Of a stretch of 64,000 nt of DNA, positions 1-34,946 are shown piece by piece. The stretch covers positions 39,726-103,725 of IMG/VR virus record IMGVR_UViG_3300010885_081999, one strand, 5' to 3'. The notes beneath the pieces are model-generated. The model searched no databases and was not told where the DNA came from. It saw only the letters and a list, made by a program, of their open reading frames with translations. Both the position numbers and the translations under genes were made by a program. Numbering within the stretch: position 1 is the first letter of the stretch; each line of letters opens with the position of its first letter. The DNA comes from a virus.

Positions 1-2
1 TT

Positions 3-392
3 CGCAGAAAGGCCAGAATAAGACGGCGGAAGTATGTGTCCGCTGAGGGCAACAACCCACTCTCTCGGGGCCGAAGAGAAAGAGTCTATGTATTCGAGGA
101 CCGCGGAGGTCATGTTGGCCTCGGTCGCTCCCTGGGAGATCCAGTCCGCCATCCTGTCGACGATTGGATCGGTCTCTTTAGGGGGATACATGACGCCTGG
201 GAGACCACGAAGATACGACCAGGCTTCAACGGCAGCGCCGTATGCATTGCCTGTCTTAAAGGCCTTGACGAACCCTGCGTTGGCCAATACCCTCTTGACG
301 ATCTGTGCACTGACGTCGGTTCCTTCGCGGAGGGCGACCTTCTGCACTTCTTCCTTGATGATTCTGCGAAGCTGACTGACTGTGATCTTCAT
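3..392 (-). CDS. Hypothetical protein with MKITVSQLRRIIKEEV leader (3' end runs off the window)
   Basis: Manually translated open frame from ATG at 392 to the window edge; not in the ORF track; ATATTTA motif upstream (425-431). Confidence 0.8.
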   Translation of the reverse strand, partial: MKITVSQLRRIIKEEVQKVALREGTDVSAQIVKRVLANAGFVKAFKTGNAYGAAVEAWSYLRGLPGVMYPPKETDPIVDRMADWISQGATEANMTSAVLEYIDSFSSAPREWVVALSGHILPPSYSGLSA

Positions 393-435
393 GCGTTTTT
401 CCTTTTGATCGAAAGAAATGCAAATAAATATTCCG

Positions 436-1428
436 TCAGGCCGGAAAGTGCTGCAGCAGGTCCACTTTCTTTGCGGCTGCCTCGTCGAGGTACTTCAGCG
501 GGTTGTAGTCCTCGGATCCCCTGATCCACTCCAGGGTCTCTCGAATACCCTGCGACAAATCAAGTTCTGGTTTCCACCCAAGCTTTTCCCTGATTTTCTG
601 AGAGGACAATCGGTGGTTACCGAGGTAGTCCGTCTTGGGATGCCACACCAGCCGTCCGCTCGTGCCAGGGAGGTGGGCATCGACTTCGGACACGACCTCG
701 GACGCGGGACGGGCAGTCTCCGCCGCAACGTTCCAGTCGGTTCCCCATCCCTGACCCATGGGATCTCGGCACACGACCTCGATCGCCTTGCAGAAGTCCG
801 ACACGTGGAGGTAGTCCTTCACCTTGGTGGGATCGAGGAACATGTCGATCGAAGGTCGACCTTTCAGGGAGGCATAGATCGACTTCGCGATGAGGGAGTT
901 CATGTCACCGAGACCTCCGAAGGCGAAGAGGGGACGCACGATCGTCCATCGATTCGCCATCGCGGTGACGATCTGCTCGGCCGCGAGCTTCTGGACGCCG
1001 TAATATGTCCGCGGGCACTTGTCAGAGGCTTCCGTGATCCACTCGTCCTGGTATTTCGGAGTATCGTAGATCACCGTCGTGCCGAGGTAGCAGACAGCCG
1101 CCTTGGCCCTGTTCGCAGCCCGGACGATGTTGTAGGTGCCTTGCACGTTGGAAAGCACAGCTTCCTGAGGATCGAGCGCGACGACGTCTGTACCTACGAC
1201 GGCCGCATTGTGCACGACGACGTCGATGTCGTTACCGTAGAGAACGTTGTACCATGCATCTTCTGAGTTCTGCCAGATGCATGCCTCCCCCGTCTTCGGA
1301 ACCTTCTTGGGTTCTGCTGCGTCGGAGAAGAGCTCACCGTCAGTGACGACCTCGTGCTTACGAGACTCGAGGACGACCTTGAGGTTGCGTGAGATCAGCC
1401 CGTTTTGGCCCGTGATGTAGAACTTCAT
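436..1428 (-). CDS. NAD-dependent epimerase/dehydratase (extended SDR, NDP-sugar)
   Basis: ITGQNGLIS Rossmann motif, HNAA, YGVQK (YxxxK); GGAGG RBS before ATG 1428. Confidence 0.85.
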   Translation of the reverse strand: MKFYITGQNGLISRNLKVVLESRKHEVVTDGELFSDAAEPKKVPKTGEACIWQNSEDAWYNVLYGNDIDVVVHNAAVVGTDVVALDPQEAVLSNVQGTYNIVRAANRAKAAVCYLGTTVIYDTPKYQDEWITEASDKCPRTYYGVQKLAAEQIVTAMANRWTIVRPLFAFGGLGDMNSLIAKSIYASLKGRPSIDMFLDPTKVKDYLHVSDFCKAIEVVCRDPMGQGWGTDWNVAAETARPASEVVSEVDAHLPGTSGRLVWHPKTDYLGNHRLSSQKIREKLGWKPELDLSQGIRETLEWIRGSEDYNPLKYLDEAAAKKVDLLQHFPA

Positions 1429-1489
1429 TGTACCTCCATCATAAACGGCTCGGGCGGCCATTTTCACAGCCGCCCGAGCCGAAGCTATC

Positions 1490-1945
1490 TCACTCAATTT
1501 CCTTGTCGTACGGTTCGTAGAGCATCTTTCCTGCGGCCTTGCTGCGATCGAGATAATCCTCGAGCTCTTCGAATGAAGTACACACGCGTGCACCTGATCT
1601 ACTCAACATGAGGTTGAATTTTGCTCCAGCTGGGAGTCCGGCGCAGAAGTAGATGATGTGCTTGTCGAAGGCTGTTGCATATCCGCACTCCATGATAGTG
1701 CCCAAGTCCTTATCGCGAGTGTTGACGACAAGGAAGTCAGATTCGCGGATGTGTTTCAAATTACCCTGATAAGTCGCATCCTGAACCTCACGGGAAGCAT
1801 TTGGTGGGCAAATGAAGATTCGTCGTGGAGACGCCATGTCAATCCAGTCCTTACGTGCCTCCATGATTTGTTCGAGTCTGGTGAGCTCGGCGTCTTGAAC
1901 GGGGTTGAACCAGCCTGCGGCGAGGTACATCTTTTTGCGATTCAT
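1490..1945 (-). CDS. Nucleoside 2-deoxyribosyltransferase / nucleotide N-glycosidase family
   Basis: YLAAGWF, D-x-GT-x-x-E-x-GYA and NLML motifs. Confidence 0.8.
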   Translation of the reverse strand: MNRKKMYLAAGWFNPVQDAELTRLEQIMEARKDWIDMASPRRIFICPPNASREVQDATYQGNLKHIRESDFLVVNTRDKDLGTIMECGYATAFDKHIIYFCAGLPAGAKFNLMLSRSGARVCTSFEELEDYLDRSKAAGKMLYEPYDKEIE

Positions 1946-2835
1946 CTTTGATTTGCCTTTCTAGTTGTGTATTCCAATAGTAGCATGTCTTTATCAATTG
2001 AACAACGTGACTGTTTACGCACGTTGTCAACTGCAGGAATGAATTCTAAGTTAGAAATGTCACCAATGACTTCTGGTGGCAGGCCTTGCCTAAAGCCTTC
2101 GGCAACAGAGAACTTGTGATCTAGGTGATACTCACCTCGCTTATCGTGGTTGTCGAGTTGATCTATCGGTTGCATACGAGTGAAATGATCAACTCTTCTT
2201 CTATAGTCCTGAAATTCAGGTAGATCATCGACGTACTGTTGCCAAGTTTTTCCATGCGTCTTGAGCAGCTTCTTGTCCATAGAAGAAGAGATAAACGCTG
2301 GCGATAAGACGATGTTGTGCACTCCAAACTTTTCGACACAAGTTTCTTCTGCTCGAGATCGTAGAATAGGAGATTCGAAAGTCGATGGGCCACCCCATCT
2401 ATCAGTCATCGTTTGGCGCCGCCGGGCAAGCACTTCGGGATTTTCAATCGGAGACTTATAGCCGTATCTCTTCAAATTTGTCTCTTCGATCTTGGCCCTA
2501 AACTCTTCCGTCTGAGAGTAAACATCGACTCCATAACGCTCGCGAGTAGTCTTCTTCGACTTCTCTTTGGTTGAGTCAAGCTCAAATGTGCTAGCAACAC
2601 CATACTTTCTAATGTTGTTATTTTTGCGTTTTTCTTTTATCTCATCGCAAGACATTGGAAAGTCTGTCCCGTGCTTCTCTAAACTCTTCTTTCGACGAAG
2701 CTCGTATGTGATACCGCCTTTCTTCTGGGCAAGGTAGATGCACTCTTTCGAGCAAAAGAAGAAGCCAGATTTGTTGCTAAGCGGATTCTTTGGCACGAAT
2801 ATCGTCTTGCACTGCGAGCAGATTTTCTCTTTCAT
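1942..2835 (-). CDS. Putative homing endonuclease: Zn finger, (K/R)YG repeats, C-terminal HNH-like domain
   Basis: CSQC...CSKEC, repeated KYGV/RYG units, HLDH...NL...DN..K; visibly AT-richer than neighbours. Confidence 0.65.
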   Translation of the reverse strand: MKEKICSQCKTIFVPKNPLSNKSGFFFCSKECIYLAQKKGGITYELRRKKSLEKHGTDFPMSCDEIKEKRKNNNIRKYGVASTFELDSTKEKSKKTTRERYGVDVYSQTEEFRAKIEETNLKRYGYKSPIENPEVLARRRQTMTDRWGGPSTFESPILRSRAEETCVEKFGVHNIVLSPAFISSSMDKKLLKTHGKTWQQYVDDLPEFQDYRRRVDHFTRMQPIDQLDNHDKRGEYHLDHKFSVAEGFRQGLPPEVIGDISNLEFIPAVDNVRKQSRCSIDKDMLLLEYTTRKANQR

Positions 2836-2956
2836 CGCCAATCCTCTCTCGAATGATCTCGGCGACGAATTGACTCATCAGTAATCCATGTTGAGCACAA
2901 TACACCTTCAGCGCTTTGTGAGTCTCTTCGTCCACCGAGATCTTCGATTGTTTCAT
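2777..2956 (-). CDS. Small ribbon-helix-helix-like DNA-binding protein (59 aa)
   Basis: Manual translation MKQSKISVDEETHKALKVYCAQHGLLMSQFVAEIIRERI..., a beta-alpha-alpha pattern; below the ORF-track cutoff. Confidence 0.6.
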   Translation of the reverse strand: MKQSKISVDEETHKALKVYCAQHGLLMSQFVAEIIRERIGDERENLLAVQDDIRAKESA

Positions 2957-2992
2957 GGCTATACGTATCTAAGCAAGTACTAAAGTACTTAG

Positions 2993-3976
2993 TTACTTAC
3001 CTACCTTCCAATCGTTGTGCTGCCTCTTGATGGCATTCCAGTCTGTCATGTCTGCGTTCCACAGCTCGGTGAATCGCTTCTGTGGTCCGTTGCCGTGGGT
3101 GCCGTTGATGTCCTCGCGGGTCGACTGATAGATCGTGTCCTGTGGATGGAACTCGAACGTGTCGTTCTTCGGGATGGGCCAGTAGAGGTTCGTGCCTCGC
3201 GACACGAACTTGTCACCTTCCTTGACGCGGAAGGTCTTGATGTAGTGCATGTCGGGCTTGTTGAAGTCGATCACGGACGTGAACTCGGGGATCACCTTCG
3301 CCACCTCGACTGCCATGCGAGACGCGAGGAGGTTGTCGGCAGCCGGCTGGATCTGGGTGTCCATTCGCTGGTAGATGAAGCCGATGAGCTCCTTGAGTGG
3401 GAGGCGCATGTAGTAGAACGACGTCATGCACTTCGGGAGGATGAGTCGGGCATCCATCATCGACACGACCTTCGAATCCGTCATGTCGGCATAGAGCTGC
3501 TTCGAGTCCTCGACGAGCTTCTTCCATCGAGCGTGGAACTCAGGAGAGTTCTGGACGGGCTCGGGAATCACAGCGTCGTCGTCTCGGAGGTCACGGTCGC
3601 CCGTGCACTGGGCGGCGAAGGTGCCGGCACGATGGCGGATGATGTGTGTCACCTCCTGAAACGAGAGGCCGCTGAGACGGAAAGTGAAGCCGAGGCACTC
3701 CATGGGAGCGGGAAGCGTGCGGCCGCCGAACACGTCCTCGAGGTTCTTCGACAGCTCACGCTGGGTGACGCCGCTGGTGGGATCGATGTCCGGGCGGTCT
3801 GCCCACGTCGCCTTGACGTAGTGCCACGCGACGTTCCAGGCCTGCTGACGCGTGGGAGCGTCGACTAGCTCCACCTTGAGGGCATCGAGGTTGTTGTGGA
3901 ACTGGGTCTTCGGTTCTTGACCGAACTTGAGGACCATGGGAAGCTCAATGGGTTGAAGATCACGATTGATGGGCAT
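2993..3976 (-). CDS. Divergent ThyX-like flavin-dependent enzyme
   Basis: E..FTF, HIIRHR-x7-C, DARLILP; the canonical motif is RHR-x7/8-S. Confidence 0.75.
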   Translation of the reverse strand: MPINRDLQPIELPMVLKFGQEPKTQFHNNLDALKVELVDAPTRQQAWNVAWHYVKATWADRPDIDPTSGVTQRELSKNLEDVFGGRTLPAPMECLGFTFRLSGLSFQEVTHIIRHRAGTFAAQCTGDRDLRDDDAVIPEPVQNSPEFHARWKKLVEDSKQLYADMTDSKVVSMMDARLILPKCMTSFYYMRLPLKELIGFIYQRMDTQIQPAADNLLASRMAVEVAKVIPEFTSVIDFNKPDMHYIKTFRVKEGDKFVSRGTNLYWPIPKNDTFEFHPQDTIYQSTREDINGTHGNGPQKRFTELWNADMTDWNAIKRQHNDWKVGK

Positions 3977-4052
3977 TCTTACCTCTGTGTTTGAATTGAT
4001 GCAGACTCTTGTATCCTAAACAGACAAGTCGTTTCTTTGCATCGTCGGGACG

Positions 4053-4997
4053 TCAAATGACGTAATCGACGAAACTGATGGGGTCGCTGCCCTCTGGGAC
4101 ATACACGACGTTCTTCATTCCCTCGACCTCGGCGTTGTAAGTCTTTTCGGGAACGATCACAGGCACTCCGTGTTTCGCGTATTCCGCTGCGTGCTTCGCA
4201 GAATCATCGACGGCGAAATACTTGCCGGTGGAGTAGTAGGGTTGGTCGGTGAGCCACACGTATTTCTCAGGCGTGAATGTCACGCCGTCGGCCGCGATGT
4301 CGTGCCTCGAAAGCCAGGAGTACGTGTCGTAGAAGGCGGTGAGATTGGAGGCAGGACGTGCAGTGACGATCTGGATCCAGTATCCTCTGTCCTTGAGGTG
4401 CCTCAGGAGACCCGTGTACTTTTCGTTGCGTTCGAGCAGGAGAAATCCGTGTGTGTCGATGAAGGTCTTGAAGAGGACCTCGTTGTTGAGTCCGCTCTTC
4501 TTCAGTTCTTCTGTGGCATAATACTGTTTGCTCTTGGGATCGAGAAAGCAACCCGTCGTTTCGGTCACCCATCCACAGAATGAAGACCTGAACTCGGCGA
4601 GGACGTCGTCCATGTCGAACAGGGCGACAGGCTGTCCGGCCCACTTCTTTGTGGAAAGCTCGTGCCTGTAGTGGAGGAAGTCGTCCTTCTGCGACAAGGC
4701 GGCCTCGAAAGTGGAGGCGCCGATTCCCCAGAGGTTCAACATCGCGAGGATGTAACGGTATGCGTCGACGGACTTGTAGAGTATCTTCTGCACGTCGACG
4801 GGATGCTTGACACCTCGATGATCCTTGTAGTTGACGCCCTCAACGATTCCGCTTGCTTCGGCGTGAAGTGCAAGAACGAACGTCTTGAGAAGCTCTTGCT
4901 TCTGCCAGTCGTCCAGCTTCTCAGGATCGAAGAAGATGTCTGAGAAGGCCTTCTGACGCCCTAGGGCTTCGTGCAGCTTCGACCAGTCGTTCATCAA
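4053..4997 (-). CDS. Degenerate all-alpha NTP-pyrophosphatase domain fused to a HAD 5'-nucleotidase-like domain
   Basis: N-terminus resembles the upstream dUTPase-like gene; C-terminal HAD motifs FDMDDV, VTAR, K, VDDS. Confidence 0.7.
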   Translation of the reverse strand: MMNDWSKLHEALGRQKAFSDIFFDPEKLDDWQKQELLKTFVLALHAEASGIVEGVNYKDHRGVKHPVDVQKILYKSVDAYRYILAMLNLWGIGASTFEAALSQKDDFLHYRHELSTKKWAGQPVALFDMDDVLAEFRSSFCGWVTETTGCFLDPKSKQYYATEELKKSGLNNEVLFKTFIDTHGFLLLERNEKYTGLLRHLKDRGYWIQIVTARPASNLTAFYDTYSWLSRHDIAADGVTFTPEKYVWLTDQPYYSTGKYFAVDDSAKHAAEYAKHGVPVIVPEKTYNAEVEGMKNVVYVPEGSDPISFVDYVI

Positions 4998-5371
4998 TAG
5001 TCCTTCTTGATTCGATCGTTGATGATCTTGTCCTTCTTGAGATAGGCTTCGAACAGCTCATCCGCCGTGATTCCCAGCATGATGGGCACCGCGAGAAAGA
5101 AGTTGAACGCATCCACGTACTCCTCGAGGAATGCCTCCTGATCGAAGTCTTTCACCTCTGTCGCACGATGCGGCTTCCAGTTCTTCAGGTGCTGAAGCGC
5201 CTCGAACATCTCCTCGACGCCCTTCAGGACGTTGTCGCGCACTGCGATCTGACCCTCCTTCGAGGTGATGTCGACGGGCCACTTCTGCAACACGGCGGGC
5301 CTCGCAGCAGCGAGGTCTTTCATGAACTTCTCTCGAAGCTCCAGCATTTTCGATAGACGGTCTTCTTGCAT
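4994..5371 (-). CDS. All-alpha dimeric dUTPase/dCTPase (MazG-like superfamily)
   Basis: EEMFEAL...WKPH...EEYVDAFNF acidic metal-binding motifs. Confidence 0.75.
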   Translation of the reverse strand: MQEDRLSKMLELREKFMKDLAAARPAVLQKWPVDITSKEGQIAVRDNVLKGVEEMFEALQHLKNWKPHRATEVKDFDQEAFLEEYVDAFNFFLAVPIMLGITADELFEAYLKKDKIINDRIKKDY

Positions 5372-5427
5372 GACTAAGTTCATCATACACATGGGTCAAA
5401 CTGCAGTACAATCGATATTTACGGTAC

Positions 5428-5733
5428 ATGAGAAACGTCCGAAACATCGCGAAGATCCTTCAGGAGAGATTCGGTGACCCGATAGGAAGCTATGCAGGAG
5501 ACGCACCCGTCGGTGTGAGAGACGAAGTTTCCGTCTGTCCACACTGCGGAATGATGCCGGTCGGCGGTCGATGTGGATGTTCTGAGGACTGTGGATGCGG
5601 AGCACCTTCGGGCGAATGCAGCTGCGGCATGAAGACAGAGGGCGCCGACGTGACGGACGAGGGCCTCTCGACGTGCGACGAATGCGGAATGCTCGAGGTC
5701 GAAGGCGGGTGCGGATGCACCCACGAGATGTGA
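5428..5733 (+). CDS. Cysteine-rich small protein (12 Cys, metal-binding)
   Basis: CxxC and CxC clusters; ATATTTA motif 6 nt upstream of ATG. Confidence 0.65.
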   Translation: MRNVRNIAKILQERFGDPIGSYAGDAPVGVRDEVSVCPHCGMMPVGGRCGCSEDCGCGAPSGECSCGMKTEGADVTDEGLSTCDECGMLEVEGGCGCTHEM

Positions 5734-5742
5734 GAGGACCAC

Positions 5743-6375
5743 GTGAAGTTCTCTGTCGGCGTCGTGAAGTACGGTGACATGCCATCGAAGCAGTGGTACA
5801 TGTCGCCACAACACAAGGCGTGGTACTACCACACTCCCAGGACATCGCCTTCGGAGGAGCTGACGCCAAAGTTCCTCGAGGCGACGCTCGATGCTCCGCT
5901 GCGTCTCTTGGCACTGGGACTCAACTCCCTAGGATACACGACACTGCCTTCTTGCAGCGGACACTACAAGTCAGCCGACGAACTGAACGAGGCGTACGAC
6001 GCCCTGGTTGACGACGCAAGAAAGATCAGAAAATCGGGCTTAGAACTAATCGACGTTGAGACGGGGAATATTCTGACCCATCACGACGAGTCCTGGCACC
6101 TTCCCTGGGACCGACGGGAGTTCGCTGCAGCAGCGAGCGGTACCGATGGACGTCCTGAAGGCTACCTCGGATTCTGCGTTCCGAAGAACGACGGCTACAA
6201 GGTGGGCAAGGCAGTGGACGACGCCGTCTCCTCAACGATGGGTACCCGTTATGAGACGAAGAGGTCCCCGACGGGCTACGTGTTCGAGCTGAGGGTCCAC
6301 ACCGGAAAACAGAAATCCCAGGACGACGCATGGCGTGACCTGGGAGATTCCGTGATGTTGGGACTGTTGAAGTAG
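5743..6375 (+). CDS. Hypothetical protein (GY-x-T-x-x-SCSGH motif)
   Basis: 210-aa ORF directly after 5428..5733, convergent with 6377..7039. Confidence 0.6.
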   Translation: MKFSVGVVKYGDMPSKQWYMSPQHKAWYYHTPRTSPSEELTPKFLEATLDAPLRLLALGLNSLGYTTLPSCSGHYKSADELNEAYDALVDDARKIRKSGLELIDVETGNILTHHDESWHLPWDRREFAAAASGTDGRPEGYLGFCVPKNDGYKVGKAVDDAVSSTMGTRYETKRSPTGYVFELRVHTGKQKSQDDAWRDLGDSVMLGLLK

Positions 6376-6376
6376 A

Positions 6377-7039
6377 TCAGAGCATCGCGAGAGCAGACTG
6401 TAGAGTGGTTCTGTCCACCTTTCCAGCAAGCTGGTCGCCGACGTACTCCTTGAACACCGGATCGCTCACGTCATCGCATCCCAAATCGGGGCAATGTCCT
6501 TCGTAGTTGCGAATGATGTAGTCAACAAGCTTGACTGGGTCGGCAGGTATAACGTCCATCGACCGTCTACGAGGACCGCCGCCGTCGTGTTCGGCAACGA
6601 AGCCCCAATCGCCGCTCTTCCATGCCGCGAACTCCTCTTGGGTGATGCGAGCGTGGCCCTCTTTCAACGACTTCGCCTTGCGCTTGCGAGACTCGCCCAT
6701 TGGTGCAGCGGGCATCGAAACCGACGGCTTGTCGTAAGCACGAAGCTTCTCGTCACCCTCAAGGTAATCCTTGACGTGCTCCAGGTCGGTGTGAGCAGAG
6801 GCCACGAGGTCCTGCACCCAAGCAGGAAGCTGGTCTCCCATCTCGATGAGACCGCAGATGGTCTCGGCCATGTCCTTGACGTCTGACATGCGAGACTTCA
6901 CCATGTAACCCTCGTCGTCCATCGGGTGACCGGACTCAAAACCGTGGAGGAAGCGCTGGGGATCCTTGCCTCCGGCAGGCATCATGGACTCGACTTCTTC
7001 CTTGATGATCTTGCGTAGTTGTGTTGCTGTGAGCTTCAT
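6377..7039 (-). CDS. Hypothetical protein with MKLTATQLRKIIKEEV leader; putative virion internal protein
   Basis: Leader motif; DDEGYMVKS...LPAWVQ...DYL segment. Confidence 0.75.
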   Translation of the reverse strand: MKLTATQLRKIIKEEVESMMPAGGKDPQRFLHGFESGHPMDDEGYMVKSRMSDVKDMAETICGLIEMGDQLPAWVQDLVASAHTDLEHVKDYLEGDEKLRAYDKPSVSMPAAPMGESRKRKAKSLKEGHARITQEEFAAWKSGDWGFVAEHDGGGPRRRSMDVIPADPVKLVDYIIRNYEGHCPDLGCDDVSDPVFKEYVGDQLAGKVDRTTLQSALAML

Positions 7040-7051
7040 TGTAGTCGTCCT

Positions 7052-7510
7052 TTACTTCTTCCTTGTTGCCTTGAAATCCGCAGTCGCCTTGCCTGTGGGT
7101 TGGAATTTCTGACCGAAGCCGGCCTTCCACAGCATGCCTGTGGCCGTCTCGGCGTAGTAGAAGTCGCCGTCCCTGAAGAACTTCACGAGCTTGTTCTTCT
7201 TTGCCTCTGCAGGAGTCGTCCTCGTCGCACCGAATGCCTGCTCCGCGGGCACCGGTTGGAGCCTCTGACCCAGAGGAGTCGTCGCGACGTACTCATCGCG
7301 ACGATTCTTGCGTAGCGTCTCGGCAGCTCGGGCTGCGGCCACGACGAGGTCAAGTTGCTCGTCGTCGATATCATCGAGAGAAGATACACCAAAGAGGCTG
7401 AGAAGCGGCGTCTCGTCGACTCTCGCGCCGTATTTGTCCTTGATGACCTCAGTGATAGAAGTCATTTCTTCTTTGATGATCCTGCGAAGTTGTGTTGCTG
7501 TGAGTTTCAT
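7052..7510 (-). CDS. Hypothetical protein with MKLTATQLRRIIKEEM leader
   Basis: Leader motif; tightly packed with neighbours. Confidence 0.75.
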   Translation of the reverse strand: MKLTATQLRRIIKEEMTSITEVIKDKYGARVDETPLLSLFGVSSLDDIDDEQLDLVVAAARAAETLRKNRRDEYVATTPLGQRLQPVPAEQAFGATRTTPAEAKKNKLVKFFRDGDFYYAETATGMLWKAGFGQKFQPTGKATADFKATRKK

Positions 7511-7512
7511 CG

Positions 7513-7758
7513 TCACCACCGGCTCCCTCTACGGCCGTAACTTCCGCCTGAGCTTCCGCCCTCAAAGGGAGTCGCCTCCCCGTCCTCGAGCCACGAGTAT
7601 TCGGGGCTCTCAGCAGAGTCGAAGTACTCCTCATTGCCCTCGTCGTCCACGAGGTATAGCTCAGTGCCGCGGCGCACGATCGACTGTTCGTGCTCGAGCA
7701 GCACCTTCTGCAGTTCTTCTTTGATGATACGGCGGAGTTGTGTCGTTGTGATCTTCAT
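7513..7758 (-). CDS. Hypothetical protein with MKITTTQLRRIIKEEL leader
   Basis: Leader motif; ATGA overlap with the dps-like stop codon. Confidence 0.75.
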   Translation of the reverse strand: MKITTTQLRRIIKEELQKVLLEHEQSIVRRGTELYLVDDEGNEEYFDSAESPEYSWLEDGEATPFEGGSSGGSYGRRGSRW

Positions 7759-8309
7759 TGCGGTAGCACCCTTTGCTTCAGTAGATATACGTGTCCTTCG
7801 TGCTTGTCCTCGATGCCCTGTAGCATGTTGTCGAGGCCACGCGTCATCGTGCCGCACTCCTTAAGGAGCTCGGCGAGGTGGGACATCACCTTCAAGAAGT
7901 TCATCTCGGCGAGATACGACCGCTTCGCGAGCTCGGTGGGCTGCGGGATGGTCGACGTCATGCCGTATCCCTGGACGAGTTTCATGAGCTGTGAAGTGAC
8001 GAGGACGAGGTCCACACACGCGGTGGAGCCGAGACCGATCGACTTCTCGGCGACTGTGTCGACGTCCTCGACTGTCGCCTCGTGGATGCGCTGAAAGAGG
8101 AGGTGATCACCGTAGAAAGGATCACCCTTCGTGATCCAGTGGTGGTTCTGGTGCACCGCCGCGAGGAACTTGAGGTGGACGAGAGCCACCGAGAGCTGTG
8201 CATAGGGCGTGGATCCCCACTGTGCGACCATGTTGTCGGTCATGATGTCGAGGTTCGGCTCGACGACGATCGCCATCTCGAGAGTCTCTGAAAGCCTTCT
8301 CTTTGTCAT
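7755..8309 (-). CDS. dps: Dps/ferritin-like DNA protection protein
   Basis: HW-x3-G-x2-F-x3-H-x2-F and D-x-VAE ferroxidase signature. Confidence 0.75.
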   Translation of the reverse strand: MTKRRLSETLEMAIVVEPNLDIMTDNMVAQWGSTPYAQLSVALVHLKFLAAVHQNHHWITKGDPFYGDHLLFQRIHEATVEDVDTVAEKSIGLGSTACVDLVLVTSQLMKLVQGYGMTSTIPQPTELAKRSYLAEMNFLKVMSHLAELLKECGTMTRGLDNMLQGIEDKHEGHVYLLKQRVLPQ

Positions 8310-9457
8310 CACTTCAGCTCCAAGTTAAAGCCAACGAGGTCCACGCCAAGGGGATGAGGTCCCCACGTGATCCTGTACGGTTCGCCACGCAGCGACTGCT
8401 GGTTGTTCCAATGCGACACATAAGCGTCGAGAGCCTTCTCGGCTTTCGCATCGAAGCCACCCGGAACGGATGCCTTGACGGGCACGAGAGTCTCGGAGTT
8501 TCGGCCCTCGCCGATCCGATACTTCTTGATGCCTGCTGGAACCGTCGACTTGCGGACGGAGAATATCTTCTCCGCCTTCTCGATGTACTCTGAGGACGAG
8601 AGCGACGCCTCGAGGAGGTCTGCGACGGGATTCGCTGGTACTTCGATGACGGGCATCACGGCCTCGTCGAGGTGTGCCTCGGACCGAAGCCGGCGGACGA
8701 TCGACATCAGCGATCCTTCACCGAGGACCTCCTTGTCGCGGTCCTCGATGCACTTGTATATCGCCTTGAGAAGCTTCTCTCTGTCCACCTTCACGCCTGA
8801 AGTGGCGTAGTGCGAGGCGGAGACCCGAGTCGCGAGGATCTCTTCCCACTGTCCCTCCAGGTTGGTGCCGTATTCCTTGCACAGCTTGTGTGCGAGCCTC
8901 TCGTACCAAGTGTCGGGCAGGTCCTTCAGGGGATCGGGAGACTTGACTGCGTCGCCGAGCGGGCCGTCGCCGTACATGTCGAAGGGCTCGTCCTGGGTCT
9001 TCGGCGTCGGAAGTCCTCCTTCTGCGAGGCGCTTCTCACGGGCGATCGAACGAAGCTGATCGTCACCGGGATTCATCTTGACGGCCTCCTTCACGAGGGA
9101 GAGGGGGAGGCGGCGTGCAGCGGCACATCTCACGGAAGACGCTGCGTCTTCGAGGAGCCTGGCTGCGTGTCTCTCTGGAAGGAGACGGGCTGCGACCTTG
9201 CGGAGGACGACGGACTTGCTCGATGCCGCCTCGATGAGGACGGTGGTCTTTATCGCGGTGCGGTTGACTCCTCGTCCCGTGGACTCGAGGAGGTCGAGTT
9301 GTTCGATGGCGGCCTCTGCGACTTTCTCGCAGTTGCTTGAGACCATCACCGGAGGCCCAAATACTCTGAAAAGCTCGTCGCGAAGTGCGGTTCTGCTCTT
9401 CTCTTCTCTAATTGTGTTCTTCGCTACTCGCTGCAGCTCTTGAAGCTTCAGATGCAT
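8309..9457 (-). CDS. Hypothetical protein with short HEAT/LRV-like repeats
   Basis: LRKVAARLLP and VRCAAARRLP repeats; GGAG RBS; ATACTTA upstream. Confidence 0.65.
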   Translation of the reverse strand: MHLKLQELQRVAKNTIREEKSRTALRDELFRVFGPPVMVSSNCEKVAEAAIEQLDLLESTGRGVNRTAIKTTVLIEAASSKSVVLRKVAARLLPERHAARLLEDAASSVRCAAARRLPLSLVKEAVKMNPGDDQLRSIAREKRLAEGGLPTPKTQDEPFDMYGDGPLGDAVKSPDPLKDLPDTWYERLAHKLCKEYGTNLEGQWEEILATRVSASHYATSGVKVDREKLLKAIYKCIEDRDKEVLGEGSLMSIVRRLRSEAHLDEAVMPVIEVPANPVADLLEASLSSSEYIEKAEKIFSVRKSTVPAGIKKYRIGEGRNSETLVPVKASVPGGFDAKAEKALDAYVSHWNNQQSLRGEPYRITWGPHPLGVDLVGFNLELK

Positions 9458-9505: not shown

Positions 9506-9694
9506 TCACTTAGAGGACAATTTCATGTCCTTTGCCCATGCCCTGATCTTCTTCTTCGCCCAGTTGGGGACATAGACGCTGTCCTCTTCGAAGGCAGGAT
9601 CGTCCATGAGCTCCATGGTATAGGTCTCGTCAGGCTGTGATCCTCCGAAGACCTTCCTCACTGTCTCGCGTAGTTGTCCTATCGTCATCCTCAT
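9506..9694 (-). CDS. Small protein with leader variant MRMTIGQLRETVR
   Basis: ATACTTA 6 nt upstream of ATG 9694. Confidence 0.6.
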   Translation of the reverse strand: MRMTIGQLRETVRKVFGGSQPDETYTMELMDDPAFEEDSVYVPNWAKKKIRAWAKDMKLSSK

Positions 9695-10227
9695 GACTGG
9701 TAAGTATCGCTTCCGAAGAAAGCAGTCCAGTCGGGATGCCACGTGTGGTGAGGATTGTACTCCCAGAAGTGGAGTACGCTAGGATCTGTCGGGTTCTTTC
9801 GAAGCTGCATTCCGACCTCCGACAGCGTCCGAGACCCCTTCTTCCAGTTGCACCGCTTGCACGACGCGACGCAGTTCTTCCAGTTAGTCGGTCCGCCTCT
9901 GGATCGCGGCATGACGTGGTCGATCGTGATCGTCTTCTGGTCGAGCTTGATGCCGCAGTACTGACACTGCCAGTTGTCACGATTGAACAACACCCACTTC
10001 CTGAAGCGAGGCGCGGTGTACTTCCTGTTGACTCTCTCGAGGAGTCGAAGAGTCGCAGGCATCTCGAACGACCTCGAGGGTGAGGACACCCTCTCGTTCC
10101 ACAGACTTGGCCTCTCGCTCATCGAGATGACCTCGGCACGTCCCTTGAAGATGAGGTTGAGGGCTCTGAAGCCCGACACGAAGTTGAGAGGCGACCAATC
10201 TGCGTTGAGGAGGAGTACTCTGTTCAT
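9691..10227 (-). CDS. HNH endonuclease (McrA-like)
   Basis: VLLLNAD start; RD..CQYCG...TIDHV.PRSRGG...W.N.V..C..CN..K. Confidence 0.9.
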   Translation of the reverse strand: MNRVLLLNADWSPLNFVSGFRALNLIFKGRAEVISMSERPSLWNERVSSPSRSFEMPATLRLLERVNRKYTAPRFRKWVLFNRDNWQCQYCGIKLDQKTITIDHVMPRSRGGPTNWKNCVASCKRCNWKKGSRTLSEVGMQLRKNPTDPSVLHFWEYNPHHTWHPDWTAFFGSDTYQS

Positions 10228-11180
10228 GACATCATCTTGAAGTCGAAGAAGACCTCGCCGGTATCCGCGTCTACGTGAGTGATGGCACCGATGGGAATCG
10301 GGCTCGTGTGAGGACCATGTGAGAAGCTGTAGCCGTACGTGCAAGGAACACCTGCACCGAAGTATTCGAGTATGACGTCCTCCACGGAGGGCACCTTGGG
10401 ATCTGTCCTGCAGTCGACGTCCTCGAACTCTCCGATCACGACGGCGGAGAGGCACGTGTAGAAGCCTGCGAGGCGAAGATGGAGAAGCTCACGTGAGATC
10501 TCTTCGCCGCCCTTGTGGACGTCCTCGATGAACAAGACCTTCCCACCGGGATCTGGCATGTATGGGGTTCCGATGAGATGCACGAAGGTGTCCATGTTGC
10601 CTCCCACGGCGATGCCGACCGCGGAGCCCGGCGACACCACCCTGGGAAAGTGAGGATTGAAGTCGAAGGGACGAGAGCCCCACACCTGATCGGACTTCAG
10701 CAGCTCCAGCGTCAGCTTGAAGGACTCAGAGTCTGCCTCGCGGATCTTCCGCCCCTTGTCGAGCCTTATCGACGGTGTCTGGGCATTGAAGCTGATGAGA
10801 CCCGATTTCGAGAGGATGCCCGTGTTGATGGCGGTGAGGTCGGACATCCCGACGAAGGCCTTGCGAGATGCACGAATCGTGTCGTAGTCGAGGTAGGGAA
10901 GGAGCGCCGCACTTCCCTCGCCGCCCACCGCGCCGATCACACCTGCGACGCTGGGATTCGAGAAGGCCCAGTTGAGCTCGTCGACCCTGTCCTTGACGGA
11001 GGCAGCATGGGCTGCCGTGGTCTTCAACGACTTGACGCAAGGACCGAGAACGGGTTCGAGTCCGCACTCTCTGATGATGTCTATGCCTGCCTGAACCTCA
11101 TCTGTGATGATAGGACCGGAAGGTGCCACGATCGCGACTCTTGAACCCGAACGCAATCGCTTAGGTGAGATGATGTTCAT
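10224..11180 (-). CDS. LD-carboxypeptidase (peptidase S66, LdcA/MccF family)
   Basis: IVAPSG, GMSDLT (Ser), GGN, FIED (Glu), FSHG (His) triad motifs. Confidence 0.88.
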   Translation of the reverse strand: MNIISPKRLRSGSRVAIVAPSGPIITDEVQAGIDIIRECGLEPVLGPCVKSLKTTAAHAASVKDRVDELNWAFSNPSVAGVIGAVGGEGSAALLPYLDYDTIRASRKAFVGMSDLTAINTGILSKSGLISFNAQTPSIRLDKGRKIREADSESFKLTLELLKSDQVWGSRPFDFNPHFPRVVSPGSAVGIAVGGNMDTFVHLIGTPYMPDPGGKVLFIEDVHKGGEEISRELLHLRLAGFYTCLSAVVIGEFEDVDCRTDPKVPSVEDVILEYFGAGVPCTYGYSFSHGPHTSPIPIGAITHVDADTGEVFFDFKMMS

Positions 11181-11188
11181 GTCGTTAA

Positions 11189-11995
11189 CTATCCTTGGAT
11201 CTCGACCTTTTCGTTCGAGCCGAAGCGGGTCCTCATCACGTCGATTGCATGCTGACTTTCGTCGCACACGATGAAATTTCGACCTGTCTGTAGGGCGGCG
11301 TCGGCCGTCGTGCCGCTGCCTGCGAAAGGATCCACGACGAGCTCGCCGGCGTTCGAGGATGCGAGCACTGCCCTCTTCACGAGTTTCACGGGTTTCTGAT
11401 TGGGATATCCCAAGCGTTCCTTCGAGGCGGTACCGACGATAGACATCGACCAGACATCGGTAGGTACCTGACCCTCCATTATCCTCTTCTCGGCTTCCTC
11501 ACGAGTCCGGCCGACGTACTGTAGTTCCGGGGCTGCATAGGGCACCCTATCGATGTCGCCCCAGTTGAAGGTGTGTCGACCCTTCTTCTTGACGTAGACG
11601 AGGATGTTGTCATGCTTCGTGGGCCACTTGTCCTTTCCGCGACCGCCGAAGTTATACGACCACACGACGTCGTTGAGGAAGTTCTCCATTCCGAAGATCT
11701 CGTCGCACATCACCTTCGCATAGTGGACCCAGCGCCAGTCCAGGTGAAGGTAGAGAGTTCCTGTCTCCTTGAGGACCCTGTGCATGTCTCTCAGGTGAGG
11801 CTCCAAGAAATCGAGATAATCTTCGTACTTATCACAGTATTGTATTTTGGAGACTATGTTGCCGAGTTTGCGGCGAGCCATTGTCTGCATGTCACCCGTC
11901 CCAAACGGTGGGTCGGTATAGATCATGTCGACAGAGTCGGTCTGGAGCGACTCGAGAAGCTCCGACGCCCTGCACCGACGTATCGTGCCGCTCAT
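11189..11995 (-). CDS. DNA N6-adenine/N4-cytosine methyltransferase (beta class)
   Basis: DPPF catalytic motif precedes YPNQKP and DPFAGSGT. Confidence 0.9.
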   Translation of the reverse strand: MSGTIRRCRASELLESLQTDSVDMIYTDPPFGTGDMQTMARRKLGNIVSKIQYCDKYEDYLDFLEPHLRDMHRVLKETGTLYLHLDWRWVHYAKVMCDEIFGMENFLNDVVWSYNFGGRGKDKWPTKHDNILVYVKKKGRHTFNWGDIDRVPYAAPELQYVGRTREEAEKRIMEGQVPTDVWSMSIVGTASKERLGYPNQKPVKLVKRAVLASSNAGELVVDPFAGSGTTADAALQTGRNFIVCDESQHAIDVMRTRFGSNEKVEIQG

Positions 11996-12777
11996 CGCTT
12001 CCTCTTGCCGTTTCTCAGTGCCTCGACGGCCTCGTCGAACATCTTCGTGTCTCGCTCGACGCAGATCCAGCGCCTGTCCAGCTTCCTCGCGGCGAAGGCA
12101 GCAGTCATGGATCCTGCGAAGGGATCGAGGACCCAGTCGCCCGGGTTCGTGTTCGCCTCGATGGGAATCTCGTACACCTTCAGCGGCTTCTGTGTCGGAT
12201 GGACCTTGCCGCTGAAGATCTCCGTGGTGTCCATCCACACGTTGGTTCGACGGTAGAACTCGCTCTTCGCCGGGTATTTGGCGTTGTAGCCGGCGTAGCC
12301 TCTCTTCGTCTCGAGGTACGGCACGTTAAAGACTGCAGGCTTCTTGACGTTTCCCTTCACGAGGTAGAGTACGTCCTCCCGCGTTGCGAGGTAGTTGTGT
12401 TGAACTCCGTACGCCCTCTTCTTCGACCACGTGATGATGTTCGCCATGCGGAGAGGTGTCTCACCCTCGAGACGTGCAGCATATTCGAAAAACGGCCTGA
12501 ATCCCGGCACGCCGTAGCCACCCCAGACATAGAACGCCCCTCCGTCCACGAGAAGGTCCGTGTAGGAATTGGTCCAGCCCATCATCCAGTCGACGAAGGC
12601 CTTCTGACCCTTGTTCCACTTGTCCCATTCTTCATCGATGATGTTTCCGTAGGGAGGGTCGGTGACGACGAGGTGGGAAAGCTTGTCGCCCATTCTGGAC
12701 TTCACCTCATCGAGGACGTCCTGTTGTGTACAGTCACCGTTGATGGCGACGCCATCGTTGAAAACTTCGACTCTCAT
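11992..12777 (-). CDS. DNA N6-adenine/N4-cytosine methyltransferase (beta class)
   Basis: DPPY, HPTQKP, DPFAGS. Confidence 0.9.
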   Translation of the reverse strand: MRVEVFNDGVAINGDCTQQDVLDEVKSRMGDKLSHLVVTDPPYGNIIDEEWDKWNKGQKAFVDWMMGWTNSYTDLLVDGGAFYVWGGYGVPGFRPFFEYAARLEGETPLRMANIITWSKKRAYGVQHNYLATREDVLYLVKGNVKKPAVFNVPYLETKRGYAGYNAKYPAKSEFYRRTNVWMDTTEIFSGKVHPTQKPLKVYEIPIEANTNPGDWVLDPFAGSMTAAFAARKLDRRWICVERDTKMFDEAVEALRNGKRKR

Positions 12778-12827
12778 GTGCCTCTCATCGTCATTATAGT
12801 CAACGCGGCTTCGATGTTCAGATCCTG

Positions 12828-13691
12828 TCAAGGCAGCTGGATCGTGCCAATCATGCGAGGATTTCCGTACTCCGCCCCGCCGACGTGACAGAACAAGTTC
12901 TCCTCGATCTGATCGTCGAACTGTCCGTGGGTGTGGCCACAGAACACCTCGAACCTCGTCTGAGGGTTTGCTGCAGCGACATCAGTCAATGCGTCGCCCA
13001 TCAGCTTCGAAGTGTACCACGGCATCGCCGCGGCGGAACCCGATTTCCCGTTGTGACGATGCACTTGTGGAAAAGGCGGGACATGCGTGAGGACGATCAC
13101 TATCCGATGATCGCGAGCAGCAGCAGATGCGACTTCTCTCACGTGCTCTGCGGCCTCGAACGAGGCCTTCCTGGAGATCGAGACGATGTTTCCAATGGAG
13201 AAGTTCGCTAGCGGTAGAAGACGGGCCCAGGGAAGTCCCGTGGAACCCGCATTGACGTAGTCCTCGATCTTGTGCCAGTCCGTCATGACGATGTTGGAAC
13301 GGGCGACATCTCCCCAGTAAGCATCGTACCAACCGTCGTGGCCCACCACGGCAGTGTTCTCCGTGAGCGAAACGTGTCTTTCGTTGGTGAGATACCGAAG
13401 GTTCTTGGAGTCCTTGCAAAGGGAAACGACTTCACCCCTCACTCTCTCGAAAGATCCACCGTAGAAATCGTGGTTGCCGAGGACGAAATAGATGGGTTTG
13501 TCCACGACCGAATCGAGTATCCTGAGATGGCGAACGATGTCGTTTGCCAAGGAGATGTCACCTGTCAAGAAGACGCCGTCCACGCCAGAATTCGACAGAG
13601 GACGTGCGAATTCCTCGTGGACCCGCCCGGTTTCGTTGGGACCGTCGATGAAATCGAGATGGATGTCGGTGCACCATGCGAATTTCTTCAC
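12828..13691 (-). CDS. Calcineurin-like metallophosphoesterase
   Basis: DIH, GD, GNHD, H, GHTH motifs. Confidence 0.88.
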   Translation of the reverse strand: MKKFAWCTDIHLDFIDGPNETGRVHEEFARPLSNSGVDGVFLTGDISLANDIVRHLRILDSVVDKPIYFVLGNHDFYGGSFERVRGEVVSLCKDSKNLRYLTNERHVSLTENTAVVGHDGWYDAYWGDVARSNIVMTDWHKIEDYVNAGSTGLPWARLLPLANFSIGNIVSISRKASFEAAEHVREVASAAARDHRIVIVLTHVPPFPQVHRHNGKSGSAAAMPWYTSKLMGDALTDVAAANPQTRFEVFCGHTHGQFDDQIEENLFCHVGGAEYGNPRMIGTIQLP

Positions 13692-16398: not shown

Positions 16399-16992
16399 TC
16401 AAGCTGGGATGCAACGGACAGTTGCGAGGATCGTCCTAATCTCCTGTGCGACTTTCTCCTTCGACTTCTCACAGTCTACGACGTGGACCTTCTCCTCTTG
16501 AGCGTCCACCCACTTCGCGTAGAGATCCCTCACTTTTTGCTGCAGGACGGTGTCTTTCTCGTAGGCGTCCTCGGCCTCGTGGGCATGTGCCTTGCCGAGA
16601 AGGACGAGCGTGAAATCGGGACAACGTAGAAGTCGATACATCTTGTCGATCGTGGCCTCATCGATCCCCTCGGCCATTCCGTACACAGAAGTCGAAGGAC
16701 TCCACCTGTCGAAGATGATGTAGTCGTACTCGTGCTCGAGTTTGACGAGCTGGAAGCTCTGAAAAATCCATCTATTCAAGACCTGTAACCACTGGAAAGT
16801 TTTTGGAAACTTTTTCGCAGACCCATTCCGCAACATCCAGTAGATCAATCGATAGGTGACGTTGTCGTGGATCGGCACCTCGACGACGCATGCCCTCTTC
16901 TTGAGGGCTCCCGTGATGTGATCGCAGAGCATTTGGCTCTGTGTCGCCTTTCCGACACGGTCCGGTCCCTCGATGACGATGATCCTGCTCAT
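16399..16992 (-). CDS. tmk: Thymidylate kinase
   Basis: IEGPDRVGKATQ P-loop, FDRW motif. Confidence 0.85.
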   Translation of the reverse strand: MSRIIVIEGPDRVGKATQSQMLCDHITGALKKRACVVEVPIHDNVTYRLIYWMLRNGSAKKFPKTFQWLQVLNRWIFQSFQLVKLEHEYDYIIFDRWSPSTSVYGMAEGIDEATIDKMYRLLRCPDFTLVLLGKAHAHEAEDAYEKDTVLQQKVRDLYAKWVDAQEEKVHVVDCEKSKEKVAQEIRTILATVRCIPA

Positions 16993-17675
16993 TCGAACGG
17001 CTCCCTGAGAGTGCTCACATACTGTCCGTGTGGAACCATTTCCTCGAAAGTCAACTTGAACGCCTCCAGCGTGGCATCGAACACGCCGAGGTCGGACACC
17101 TGTGCGAGCATCTCGTGTGCAAGCTCCCTGACTTCGAGTTGTGCGTGCTTAGAATAGCGCAGCTTGAGAAAGTGATAGAAGCTGCGGAAGTTGAACATGA
17201 CGTCTGCTGTGATCTGGTTTCCGTAGGGGAGGTAGAATCGGGCAGATTCCTTTGCCCTCTTGCGAGGCATTCCTTTCGAGACGAGTCGTTCTAGCGTCTC
17301 GTGATACTTGTGGAGAGAATACTCGAGGTGTGTGATGTACTTCTCTCGTTCCTCGGTGTCCCAATCGACAGGAACATAGTACTTGTCGTCTTTCAACTCC
17401 TTGTATCGGGCCGACTCCGCATTGACGGAGACGCCGATTCGATGCTTCAAGATGTGAATGTGTGTCGCTACGTCCGTGGTGACGAGGAAGTGCAACGCAC
17501 TCTTCTCGAAGGGCGTCTCGTGACTGTTCTCAGCCAGCATCTGCAAGAGAGAAGGAATTCGGGCTCTCTTCTCTTCTGTCAAGTCTCTCGACGTCGACGT
17601 CCAAGCAGAGAGCCCGTGTGTTTCGTCGGAACCATAATGTCCGACAAGCTCTACTTTGTTTTCTTGTGCAGGCAT
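16989..17675 (-). CDS. thyX: FAD-dependent thymidylate synthase ThyX
   Basis: HETPFE, KHR-x8-SARY, ESARFYLP, N.RS..HFL.LR...AQ.E.R. Confidence 0.9.
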   Translation of the reverse strand: MPAQENKVELVGHYGSDETHGLSAWTSTSRDLTEEKRARIPSLLQMLAENSHETPFEKSALHFLVTTDVATHIHILKHRIGVSVNAESARYKELKDDKYYVPVDWDTEEREKYITHLEYSLHKYHETLERLVSKGMPRKRAKESARFYLPYGNQITADVMFNFRSFYHFLKLRYSKHAQLEVRELAHEMLAQVSDLGVFDATLEAFKLTFEEMVPHGQYVSTLREPFE

Positions 17676-27701: not shown

Positions 27702-27726
27702 GCATCTAAGTATGCTATGCTTGTGC

Positions 27727-27763
27727 AAAAAAGAAGGGGGACAGCATATGCTGTCCCCCTTCT
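27727..27763 (-). terminator. Intrinsic terminator after SSB (perfect 32-bp palindrome plus T-tract)
   Basis: AGAAGGGGGACAGCATATGCTGTCCCCCTTCT followed by Ts on the minus strand. Confidence 0.75.
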
Positions 27764-30232: not shown

Positions 30233-30275
30233 TGTGATTTCCTTTTTGTGAGGACATTCACTACATATTCTGGGC

Positions 30276-31481: not shown

Positions 31482-31522
31482 ACCACGACTCTAACACGCA
31501 GAACGAAGCGTTTACACTTCCA

Positions 31523-34920: not shown

Positions 34921-34946
34921 GATTCGCTCAACTCCTCATGGTGGTG

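Follow-up and report, generated by a model that had tools for sequence, protein, structure and literature searches.

A conserved phage gene module combining a rewired ThyX paralog, a miniature ThyA domain and a nucleoside deoxyribosyltransferase: a candidate pathway to a modified pyrimidine before replication

The final 64 kb of a 103,725-bp IMG/VR viral contig (record IMGVR_UViG_3300010885_081999, positions 39,726 to 103,725; this whole stretch of 64,000 nucleotides is hereafter called the window) carries five co-oriented genes on its minus strand, at 436-5392, that adjoin the DNA polymerase gene (DnaE) of a large uncultured freshwater phage. They encode a MazG-like all-alpha nucleoside triphosphate (NTP) pyrophosphatase, a fusion of a dUTPase-like domain with a haloacid dehalogenase (HAD) nucleotidase, a rewired ThyX paralog (ThyXp), a nucleoside 2-deoxyribosyltransferase-like protein (NDT) and a divergent extended short-chain dehydrogenase/reductase (SDR). 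Herein, we report that these genes are the upstream half of a larger module, which ends with a split DnaE and a protein joining a kinase to a miniature ThyA-type domain (kinase::mini-ThyA). With confidence only slightly above even, we read this module as serving the pre-replicative synthesis of a C5-modified pyrimidine deoxynucleotide, probably a modified dCMP. This reading follows from a close parallel with the T-even phages, namely an all-alpha pyrophosphatase, a ThyA-type dCMP enzyme and a dedicated kinase. Throughout, substrates and products are predictions based on residues and gene neighbourhood.

The better candidate for the base-modifying step appears to be the mini-ThyA domain rather than ThyXp. 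It lies outside the window: below the SDR gene in contig coordinates come the split DnaE and then a protein of ~301 aa (contig 33523-34428). The N-terminal half of this protein matches the P-loop kinase YorR of SPbeta (2axp, E 2.6e-8) and phrog_761, 'thymidylate kinase'. For the C-terminal domain, a profile of nine sequences from all lineages had T4 dCMP hydroxymethylase as its best PDB match (1b49, E 3.7e-7) and also matched the mutant T4 chains D179N (E 8.7e-6) and C148S/D179N (E 7.6e-4), whereas true thymidylate synthases gave E values of 0.2 or worse. The domain is ~115-150 residues long and aligns to residues 135-219 of the 246 residues of gp42. Invariant in all nine sequences are an Arg, the Cys nucleophile, an Arg-Ser pair, a His and an Asp at the position of T4 Asp179, which corresponds to Asn177 of ThyA. 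Pfam misses the domain (PF00303 gave no match in the genome), and source annotations call the protein that bears it a thymidylate kinase or hypothetical. A tblastn search of the kinase fusion against isolated phages gave no match.

The identity of two positions bears on the predicted substrate and product. An Asp at the ThyA Asn177 position leads to dCMP preference, exchange of Asp169 for Asn is the signature of 5-hydroxy-dCMP synthases, and these synthases require a cognate deoxynucleoside monophosphate (dNMP) kinase (PMC13326640). In this phage, Asp is kept at position 169 (RSTD), and Asn (RSSN) occurs in three of 14 aquatic relatives and in the phages resembling Geobacillus phage GR1. Because the Asp is retained, the 5-hydroxy type is not indicated here by the rule of that paper, and the product would be of the hydroxymethyl type, not the hydroxy type. 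The 5-hydroxy-dCMP pathway of RB69, DLP3, HY126 and RL38JI nevertheless offers a relevant parallel in its flavin-dependent C5 chemistry on dCMP, its cognate dNMP kinase and its later glycosylation. The GR1-like members share both Asp169-to-Asn and Asn177-to-Asp with those synthases and have a flavin reductase and a glycosyltransferase nearby; for GR1, this exchange and the glycosyltransferase would predict 5-hydroxy-dC or its glycoside. The enzymes of PMC13326640 differ in being full-length ThyA homologs, none of them described with a ThyX-fold partner (the word 'ThyX' is absent from the text), and their Asp169-to-Asn exchange is absent from this phage.

Mini-ThyA and ThyXp travel together in two arrangements. 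GR1, where it is annotated as hypothetical, and three further genomes (G004, G005, G002) have the domain as a separate gene immediately downstream of ThyXp. Of 14 large aquatic contigs, 10 encode it as a fusion with the kinase; the other four end within ~2-10 kb of ThyXp, so the kinase gene region may be cut off. ThyXp and the cytosine-type mini-ThyA are thus a conserved pair, a statement that covers every lineage other than the most distant one (L111/112). The initial annotation had proposed that a ThyX fold takes the place of the usual ThyA fold in making the new base; that proposal needs correction, as a cytosine-type ThyA core belongs to the same module. Its analogy with base-substituting phages such as T4 (gp42 and gp56) holds and has become stronger, with gp1 as a further counterpart.

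ThyXp (2993..3976, minus strand, 327 aa) has the ThyX fold. Its AlphaFold2 (AF2) model reached a predicted local distance difference test (pLDDT) score of 76, Foldseek returned only ThyX, PolB and atypical-ThyX chains (E ~1e-9 to 1e-7), and Pfam Thy1 scored 60.9 bits against a cut-off of 24.8. A phmmer search against the PDB matched no chain and a profile was required, for which the best-scoring chain was the S88C mutant 3g4c. Residues were mapped by profile alignments to T. maritima ThyX, other PDB chains and the canonical ThyX of the phage clade itself. The fold, the RHR motif and two nucleotide-binding Arg (Arg177 and Arg204, equivalent to T. maritima Arg147 and Arg174) are common to ThyXp, canonical ThyX (T. 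maritima TM0449), the UMP methylase PolB and the atypical ThyX of C. glutamicum. Canonical ThyX differs from ThyXp in signature residues, terminal extensions and equivalog score. In place of the remainder of the motif RHRxxSxxxxSxRY, ThyXp reads A-Q-C-T-G-D after RHR, which puts Ala122 at Glu86, Cys124 at Ser88, Gly126 at Arg90 and Asp127 at Tyr91 (T. maritima numbering). The position of the folate-stacking His53 is taken by Cys94, and by Thr in GR1. Cys124, Gly126 and Asp127 are invariant across every lineage sampled. The extensions are long (~70 residues N-terminal and ~90 C-terminal), and the TIGR02170 score was 32.5 bits against an equivalog cut-off of 87.9, compared with 96.9 bits for the canonical ThyX confirmed at 16989-17675 in the same window. 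These residues point to a flavin-dependent protein with nucleotide binding preserved, which may modify C5 in a second reaction of its own, supply flavin chemistry to the truncated ThyA core or serve as the thymidylate synthase of the module.

The ThyXp family is large and almost confined to viruses. It comprises more than 1000 clusters at 90% identity from freshwater, marine, gut and thermophile phages, and its ESM Atlas clusters are 86-97% viral. A search of 185,579 species genomes gave five hits, all on contigs of metagenome-assembled genomes (MAGs) with phage-type replication genes. Long fused forms of ThyXp (574-2000 aa) were also searched for and none was found, which is weak evidence.

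Two enzymes upstream of ThyXp are predicted to act on nucleotides. The MazG-like gene (4994..5392, minus strand, 132 aa; phrog_12184/173) matches Pfam dUTPase_2 (PF08761) at 26.7 bits against a cut-off of 22.9, and its metal motifs EExxE...EExxD and the sequence KNWKxHR are invariant in 18 homologs. The Met at 5371 is its likely start, in agreement with the homologs. The protein is a candidate dCTPase/dUTPase converting a canonical deoxynucleoside triphosphate (dNTP) to the dNMP. Its stop is overlapped by 4 bp by the start of the HAD fusion (4053..4997, minus strand, 314 aa). For the all-alpha residues 1-115 of the fusion, a profile search pointed to the dimeric dUTPase of C. jejuni (1w2y, E 0.004); this domain is degenerate, with two of the four acidic metal ligands kept (Glu47 and Asp78). 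Residues 120-300 form an NT5C-type 5'(3')-deoxyribonucleotidase (Pfam NT5C, 25.8 bits versus 24.8), in which HAD motifs I-IV are complete and invariant (DxDxV, Thr212, Lys245 and Asp264-Asp265). The model has a pLDDT of 93, and its best Foldseek folds are the deoxyribonucleotidases 3bwv (TM 0.80) and 4mum (TM 0.72).

The NDT gene (1490..1945, minus strand, 151 aa; phrog_7995) matches Pfam Nuc_deoxyrib_tr (PF05014) at 49.2 bits against a cut-off of 28.8, and its best PDB matches are the NDTs of Bacillus psychrosaccharolyticus (6evs) and Lactobacillus (type II, 1f8x). Like them, it has the AGWF loop, a catalytic Glu and an Asp and Asn that bind deoxyribose: Tyr7, Asp80, the catalytic Glu86 and Asn111 are invariant and equivalent to L. 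leichmannii Tyr7, Asp92, Glu98 and Asn123. It differs from them in carrying an invariant Asn62 at the base-contacting Asp72 position (20 sequences including GR1), in an invariant C-terminal Ile-Glu and, in one lineage, in fusion to a P-loop kinase. Its loop AAGWFNP is of the NDT type, and the GSIRGG-type phosphate loop that follows strand 1 in DNPH1 and MilB is absent. DNPH1 chains align only from residue 59, at E of at least 0.05. These features suggest a true nucleoside transferase, unlike the nucleotide glycosidases of the MilB/DNPH1 type, and speak against the parallel with the N-glycosidase MilB drawn in the initial annotation.

Conservation of the gene neighbourhood was followed through 80 related viral loci of an aquatic clade, in which ThyXp is 56-91% identical; partners were counted only in loci with enough flanking sequence. 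NDT accompanied ThyXp in 69 of 69 such loci, MazG in 65 of 65, the HAD fusion in 60 of 71 and the SDR in 38 of 43. Synteny within one clade could be inherited gene order, and the same functions built from non-orthologous parts are stronger evidence. Four other lineages provide it. Low-GC phages of ~45 kb (L094-97, L108, L110) encode dUTPase_2, a P-loop kinase::NDT fusion, a YfbR-like HD 5'-deoxynucleotidase, ThyXp, a small protein and DnaE. A marine contig (L109) carries NDT, an HD nucleotidase, ThyXp, a stand-alone dUTPase_2 domain, DnaE and a kinase. Geobacillus phage GR1 and its relatives have NDT, a thioredoxin, an HD nucleotidase, a glycosyltransferase, a P-loop protein, a nitroreductase, ThyXp, a small protein, DnaE and a MazG-like dUTPase. 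In the most distant lineage (L111/112, ThyXp 29-30% identical), an NT5C-type HAD gene comes right after ThyXp. The module is linked to DnaE in four of the five lineages. HAD and HD/YfbR-type nucleotidases substitute for each other between lineages, as selection acting on the function and not on the particular gene would predict. Because the arrangement recurs in 80 related loci and in four lineages with substituted parts, it is far beyond chance, and the claim of a conserved functional module held in the relatives. In 47 related loci (e.g. L009:3759-4559, L058:9985-10776, L064:4847-5638), the module also contains or adjoins a gene for an Fpg/Nei-family DNA glycosylase, placed between NDT and SDR in one sub-clade. 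No such gene was found on the present, partial contig. The enzyme may serve to check the identity of bases in the phage DNA.

The module is distinct from the genes for ordinary dTTP supply, as the initial annotation had argued from genes elsewhere in the window. These were confirmed: besides canonical ThyX, the window encodes Tmk (16399-16992), a trimeric Dut (25218-25652) and an NrdJ-like ribonucleotide reductase (RNR; 18833-21430). Thymidine kinase (TK) and dCMP deaminase genes lie upstream on the contig, clustered with two GalE/TviC-like SDR genes (contig 29728-33513). Canonical ThyX accompanies ThyXp in 10 of 13 large related contigs, including a complete 284-kb genome, and one sub-clade has it three genes upstream of ThyXp, in the same orientation and the same gene cluster. 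Coexistence of the two ThyX types in the aquatic clade is therefore long-standing.

In the route that we favour, the MazG-like enzyme would convert a canonical dNTP (dCTP and/or dUTP) to the dNMP, as T4 gp56 does. The mini-ThyA domain would then modify C5 of dCMP by means of its Cys nucleophile and its cytosine-specifying Asp, and the fused kinase would raise the modified monophosphate to the diphosphate, as T4 gp1 does. The product would be incorporated by the adjacent DnaE. The HAD deoxyribonucleotidase and NDT could turn unwanted dNMPs into nucleosides and move their deoxyribose to another base, clearing competitors and recycling deoxyribose. Such a deoxyribose-recycling shunt would be the simplest reading of a nucleotidase next to an NDT, and the kinase::NDT fusion of one lineage suggests that the nucleoside leaving NDT is phosphorylated at once. 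ThyXp would carry out a second, non-thymidylate C5 reaction or work jointly with mini-ThyA.

This route resembles known systems in part. The T-even system (gp56 dCTPase/dUTPase, gp42, gp1) is alike in its all-alpha pyrophosphatase, its ThyA-type core with Cys and Asp and its dedicated kinase, and in both an ordinary thymidylate synthase, dCMP deaminase and TK are retained alongside (Td, Cd and Tk in T4). It differs in that the ThyA-type part here is a core of ~115-150 aa, kinase-fused or stand-alone and not recognised by Pfam, that the polymerase is of the DnaE type and that no module-linked DNA glycosyltransferase was found among the ORFs scanned; nor does it have counterparts to the rewired ThyX, the 5'-deoxynucleotidase and NDT. 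Bacillus phages with 5-hydroxymethyluracil or uracil in their DNA (hmU/U phages; SP8, phi-e, SP5C, PBS2) encode a dTTPase-dUTPase, a dTMP 5'-nucleotidase, a dUMP hydroxymethylase and an hmdUMP kinase. The module is like them in joining a dNTP pyrophosphatase, a deoxynucleotide 5'-nucleotidase, a C5-modifying enzyme and a kinase, and differs in that their dUMP hydroxymethylase is a full ThyA-type enzyme and NDT is lacking. Thymine exclusion of that kind fits poorly here because the phage retains a complete dTTP pathway.

A more specific form of this route, which we put forward tentatively and consider rather doubtful, is that ThyXp and mini-ThyA are the two components of one flavin-dependent enzyme that modifies dCMP at C5. 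Binding and activation of dCMP would fall to the ThyA core with its Cys and Asp, and ThyXp would supply, from its flavin, the one-carbon unit or oxygen that a core so truncated can no longer obtain from folate. The Asp/Asn switch at position 169 would then set a hydroxymethyl or a hydroxy product. This enzyme would be fed by a new deoxyribose-recycling shunt made up of the nucleotidase, NDT and the kinase. If true, both the two-component architecture and the salvage logic would be ones not described for any DNA modification system.

Several considerations weigh against a modified pyrimidine. The mini-ThyA core lacks most folate-binding parts and may not be catalytic by itself. T4-type systems need no nucleotidase or NDT, which makes the role given to them here a rationalisation. 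The three DNA methyltransferase genes of the phage may provide protection through methylation instead. That the phages assemble readily from ordinary metagenomes also speaks against bulky hypermodification. The remaining points concern thymidylate. ThyXp is the only full-size thymidylate-synthase-like gene in four of five small complete phage genomes (GR1 and three of the four other complete or near-complete ones), none of these genomes has a trimeric dUTPase, and their set can be read as an ordinary dUTPase, synthase and kinase. In addition, ThyXp retains the Arg that reads uracil O4 in ThyX.

These last points lead to the best-surviving alternative, ordinary thymidylate supply with deoxyribose salvage, which we regard as unlikely but worth serious attention. 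ThyXp would then be a divergent enzyme that truly methylates dUMP, with the all-alpha protein acting as a dimeric-type dUTPase and the kinase as a dTMP kinase, while nucleotidase, NDT and nucleoside kinase would turn other host-derived deoxynucleotides into dU and dUMP. Such a pathway would be a phage counterpart of the deoxycytidine route to thymidylate in E. coli, which Weiss is said to have described in 2007 and which runs from dCTP through dCMP, dC (YfbR) and dU to dUMP (Tdk). The retained RHR and the equivalents of Arg147 and Arg174 suit a dUMP methylase, and YfbR-like and NT5C-like nucleotidases are pyrimidine salvage enzymes. A trimeric dUTPase is likewise missing from the complete 284-kb relative (G010), and most of the small phages are AT-rich (24-40% GC) and would profit from extra dTTP. 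However, this phage and most large relatives would then have two full sets, one of canonical ThyX, Tmk, Dut, TK and dCMP deaminase and the other the module, and one sub-clade keeps both ThyX types in a single gene cluster. The four motif positions and that of the folate-stacking His now hold other residues, which are invariant in their turn, the family is virtually virus-only (the five genome hits being MAG contigs), and the cytosine-type mini-ThyA that accompanies ThyXp would go unexplained.

The initial annotation had put forward another version, in which ThyXp plays the part of T4 gp42 in a ThyX fold, with dUMP or dCMP as substrate, and the SDR helps to supply a sugar for the new base; we now consider it improbable. 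The rewired active site of ThyXp, with its new invariant Cys and Asp, is what such a modifier would call for, and flavin-dependent C5 chemistry by thymidylate-synthase relatives has a precedent (PMC13326640). GR1 has its glycosyltransferase and flavin reductase near ThyXp. A phage-encoded supply of UDP-sugars is possible, since the contig encodes a UDPGP-family sugar-1-phosphate nucleotidyltransferase (contig 9710-10771), resembling UDP-sugar pyrophosphorylases, in addition to the two GalE/TviC-like SDRs. Large relatives carry GT-B glycosyltransferase genes. Yet ~100 kb separates these genes from the module, five large aquatic-clade genomes contain no homolog of the GR1 glycosyltransferase, and the presence of a ThyA-type cytosine enzyme means that ThyXp need not be the modifier. 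A search of the genome for kinases and glycosyltransferases had been proposed; it yielded the kinase at contig 33523-34428 and no glycosyltransferase among the ~60 open reading frames (ORFs) scanned on the 104-kb contig, which represents ~32% of the genome. No module-linked post-replicative DNA kinase, such as the 5-hmdU DNA kinase of thymidine hypermodification, and no DNA glycosyltransferase was found among these ORFs either.

The SDR (436..1428, minus strand, ~330 aa) is central to this version and fits it poorly. It is of the nucleoside diphosphate (NDP)-sugar epimerase/reductase type (Pfam Epimerase, 98.9 bits; best PDB match 6bwl) and fell far below the cut-offs of all NCBIfam equivalogs compared (RmlB, GalE and others), the best being 92.7 bits against 365 for RmlB. 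It has the Rossmann loop and the Thr/Tyr/Lys triad, and GTTVIYD replaces the dehydratase sequence STDEVYG, so that the TDE motif is missing. The listed ORF start at 1593 is too early, as homologs begin at residue 56. A 16-bp GC-rich hairpin (1446..1481, minus strand) separates the SDR from NDT, and unrelated genes do so in relatives. The hairpin overlaps a promoter-like GTGAAA-N18-TATGAT, which comes from a consensus scan only, and possibly marks a transcription-unit boundary. As a recurrent phage promoter, GTGAAA-N-TATRAT was rejected because it occurs once in the window. The SDR is confined to the aquatic lineage, and its absence from the four other lineages led us to reject it as a core member. 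It is probably a lineage-specific accessory, and we think it rather unlikely that it belongs to the pathway. Decoration of the base with a sugar, as the initial annotation had suggested, is accordingly speculation.

The weakest alternative, that the module does not feed DNA and serves nucleotide degradation (pool sanitation, host shut-off or counter-defence) or the release of a free modified base or nucleoside, seems very improbable: three of the five window genes are degradative (pyrophosphatase, nucleotidase and glycosyl-transfer/hydrolase), the MilA/MilB (mildiomycin) and BcmA/BcmB (bacimethrin) pairs of a thymidylate-synthase-like and an NDT-family enzyme release free 5-hydroxymethylcytosine and offer a parallel, and the NDT relative DNPH1 hydrolyses 5-hydroxymethyl-dUMP according to PDB names, but tight DnaE linkage in four of five lineages and the dedicated kinase point to triphosphate synthesis, and NDT has a nucleoside-type loop instead of the phosphate-binding loop of DNPH1.

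Pre-replicative pyrimidine replacement, to which we assign the module, is a known kind of system; the enzymes and the salvage branch appear to be new. To our knowledge, neither a ThyX fold with an invariant Cys-x-Gly-Asp nor a cytosine-type ThyA core of ~115-150 residues has been characterised by anyone, and we know of no modification pathway that uses a deoxyribosyltransferase together with a deoxynucleotidase. Our literature searches turned up no publication on phage GR1, on miniature ThyA domains or on phages that pair a ThyX-fold paralog with NDT. Base replacement governs the escape of phages from restriction, CRISPR and glycosylase defences and is a source of many biotechnology enzymes, and the module described here is abundant and almost exclusive to viruses. 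Geobacillus phage GR1, whose host is G. stearothermophilus ATCC 10149, is the only isolate carrying the module core, which makes the question directly testable.

The contig has a CheckV completeness of 32%, and the size of a complete relative, 284 kb, indicates a phage of jumbo size. Public runs containing the region are freshwater metagenomes from several studies, available as contigs only. A DNA-level search of the region against 50,697 phage records gave no match, and the DnaE is at most ~28% identical to that of any isolate. This DnaE (contig 34425-39405, L084:14425-19405, left of the window) is split into a PHP/N-terminal part of 588 aa and a finger/C-terminal part of 775 aa by a 306-aa endonuclease-I-like gene, and the same intervening family occurs in 29 related loci. 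In addition to DnaE, the phage has a 401-aa ORF in the window (30276-31481, minus strand) with a weak family-A DNA polymerase match.

A further gene within the run, a DUF7487 homing endonuclease (1942..2841, minus strand; Pfam DUF7487, phrog_3339) between ThyXp and NDT, was overlooked when the five genes were first listed, although all five are present. It is found at this position in only three of 81 related loci, and we therefore regard it as a mobile insertion outside the pathway. A second DUF7487 copy (26772-27728) and an HNH endonuclease (9691-10455) lie amid replication and nucleotide genes, and mobile endonucleases are many in this genome.

The phage also methylates its own DNA, as judged from three DNA methyltransferase genes: two N6/N4 ORFs (11189-12238 and 11992-12831, minus strand, overlapping as listed) and one of the D12 class (contig 7480-8238). 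Between a FEN-like exonuclease and the dUTPase lies a gene for an actin-like protein (23904-24908, minus strand) with a strong match to Pfam Volactin (E 9e-64), a family described from haloarchaea; the phage otherwise has RecA, DnaB and gp32 of bacterial type. A complete DUF444/SpoVR/PrkA trio, corresponding to the bacterial stress-kinase genes YeaH, YcgB and YeaG, is found at contig 3042-7469 (E 1e-103 to 1e-136).

Almost all genes are on the minus strand, and an Rfam scan of positions 1-9000 gave no match. The 1 kb upstream of the MazG-like gene has no convincing minus-strand gene. The ORF at 5396-5914 was rejected as a gene, having no family match, a low-complexity translation and no conservation, and the conserved part of this region is a plus-strand ORF of 101 aa (5428-5733) present in the closest relatives. 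Four small minus-strand ORFs (3-392, 6377-7039, 7052-7519 and 7513-7857) flank the module on both sides. They match no Pfam family, and their sole PHROG match is a weak one of 6377-7039 to phrog_32745, of unknown function. All four share a near-identical N-terminal motif, MK-I/L-T-x-x-QLR-R/K-IIKEE, and look like a paralogous family of small proteins.

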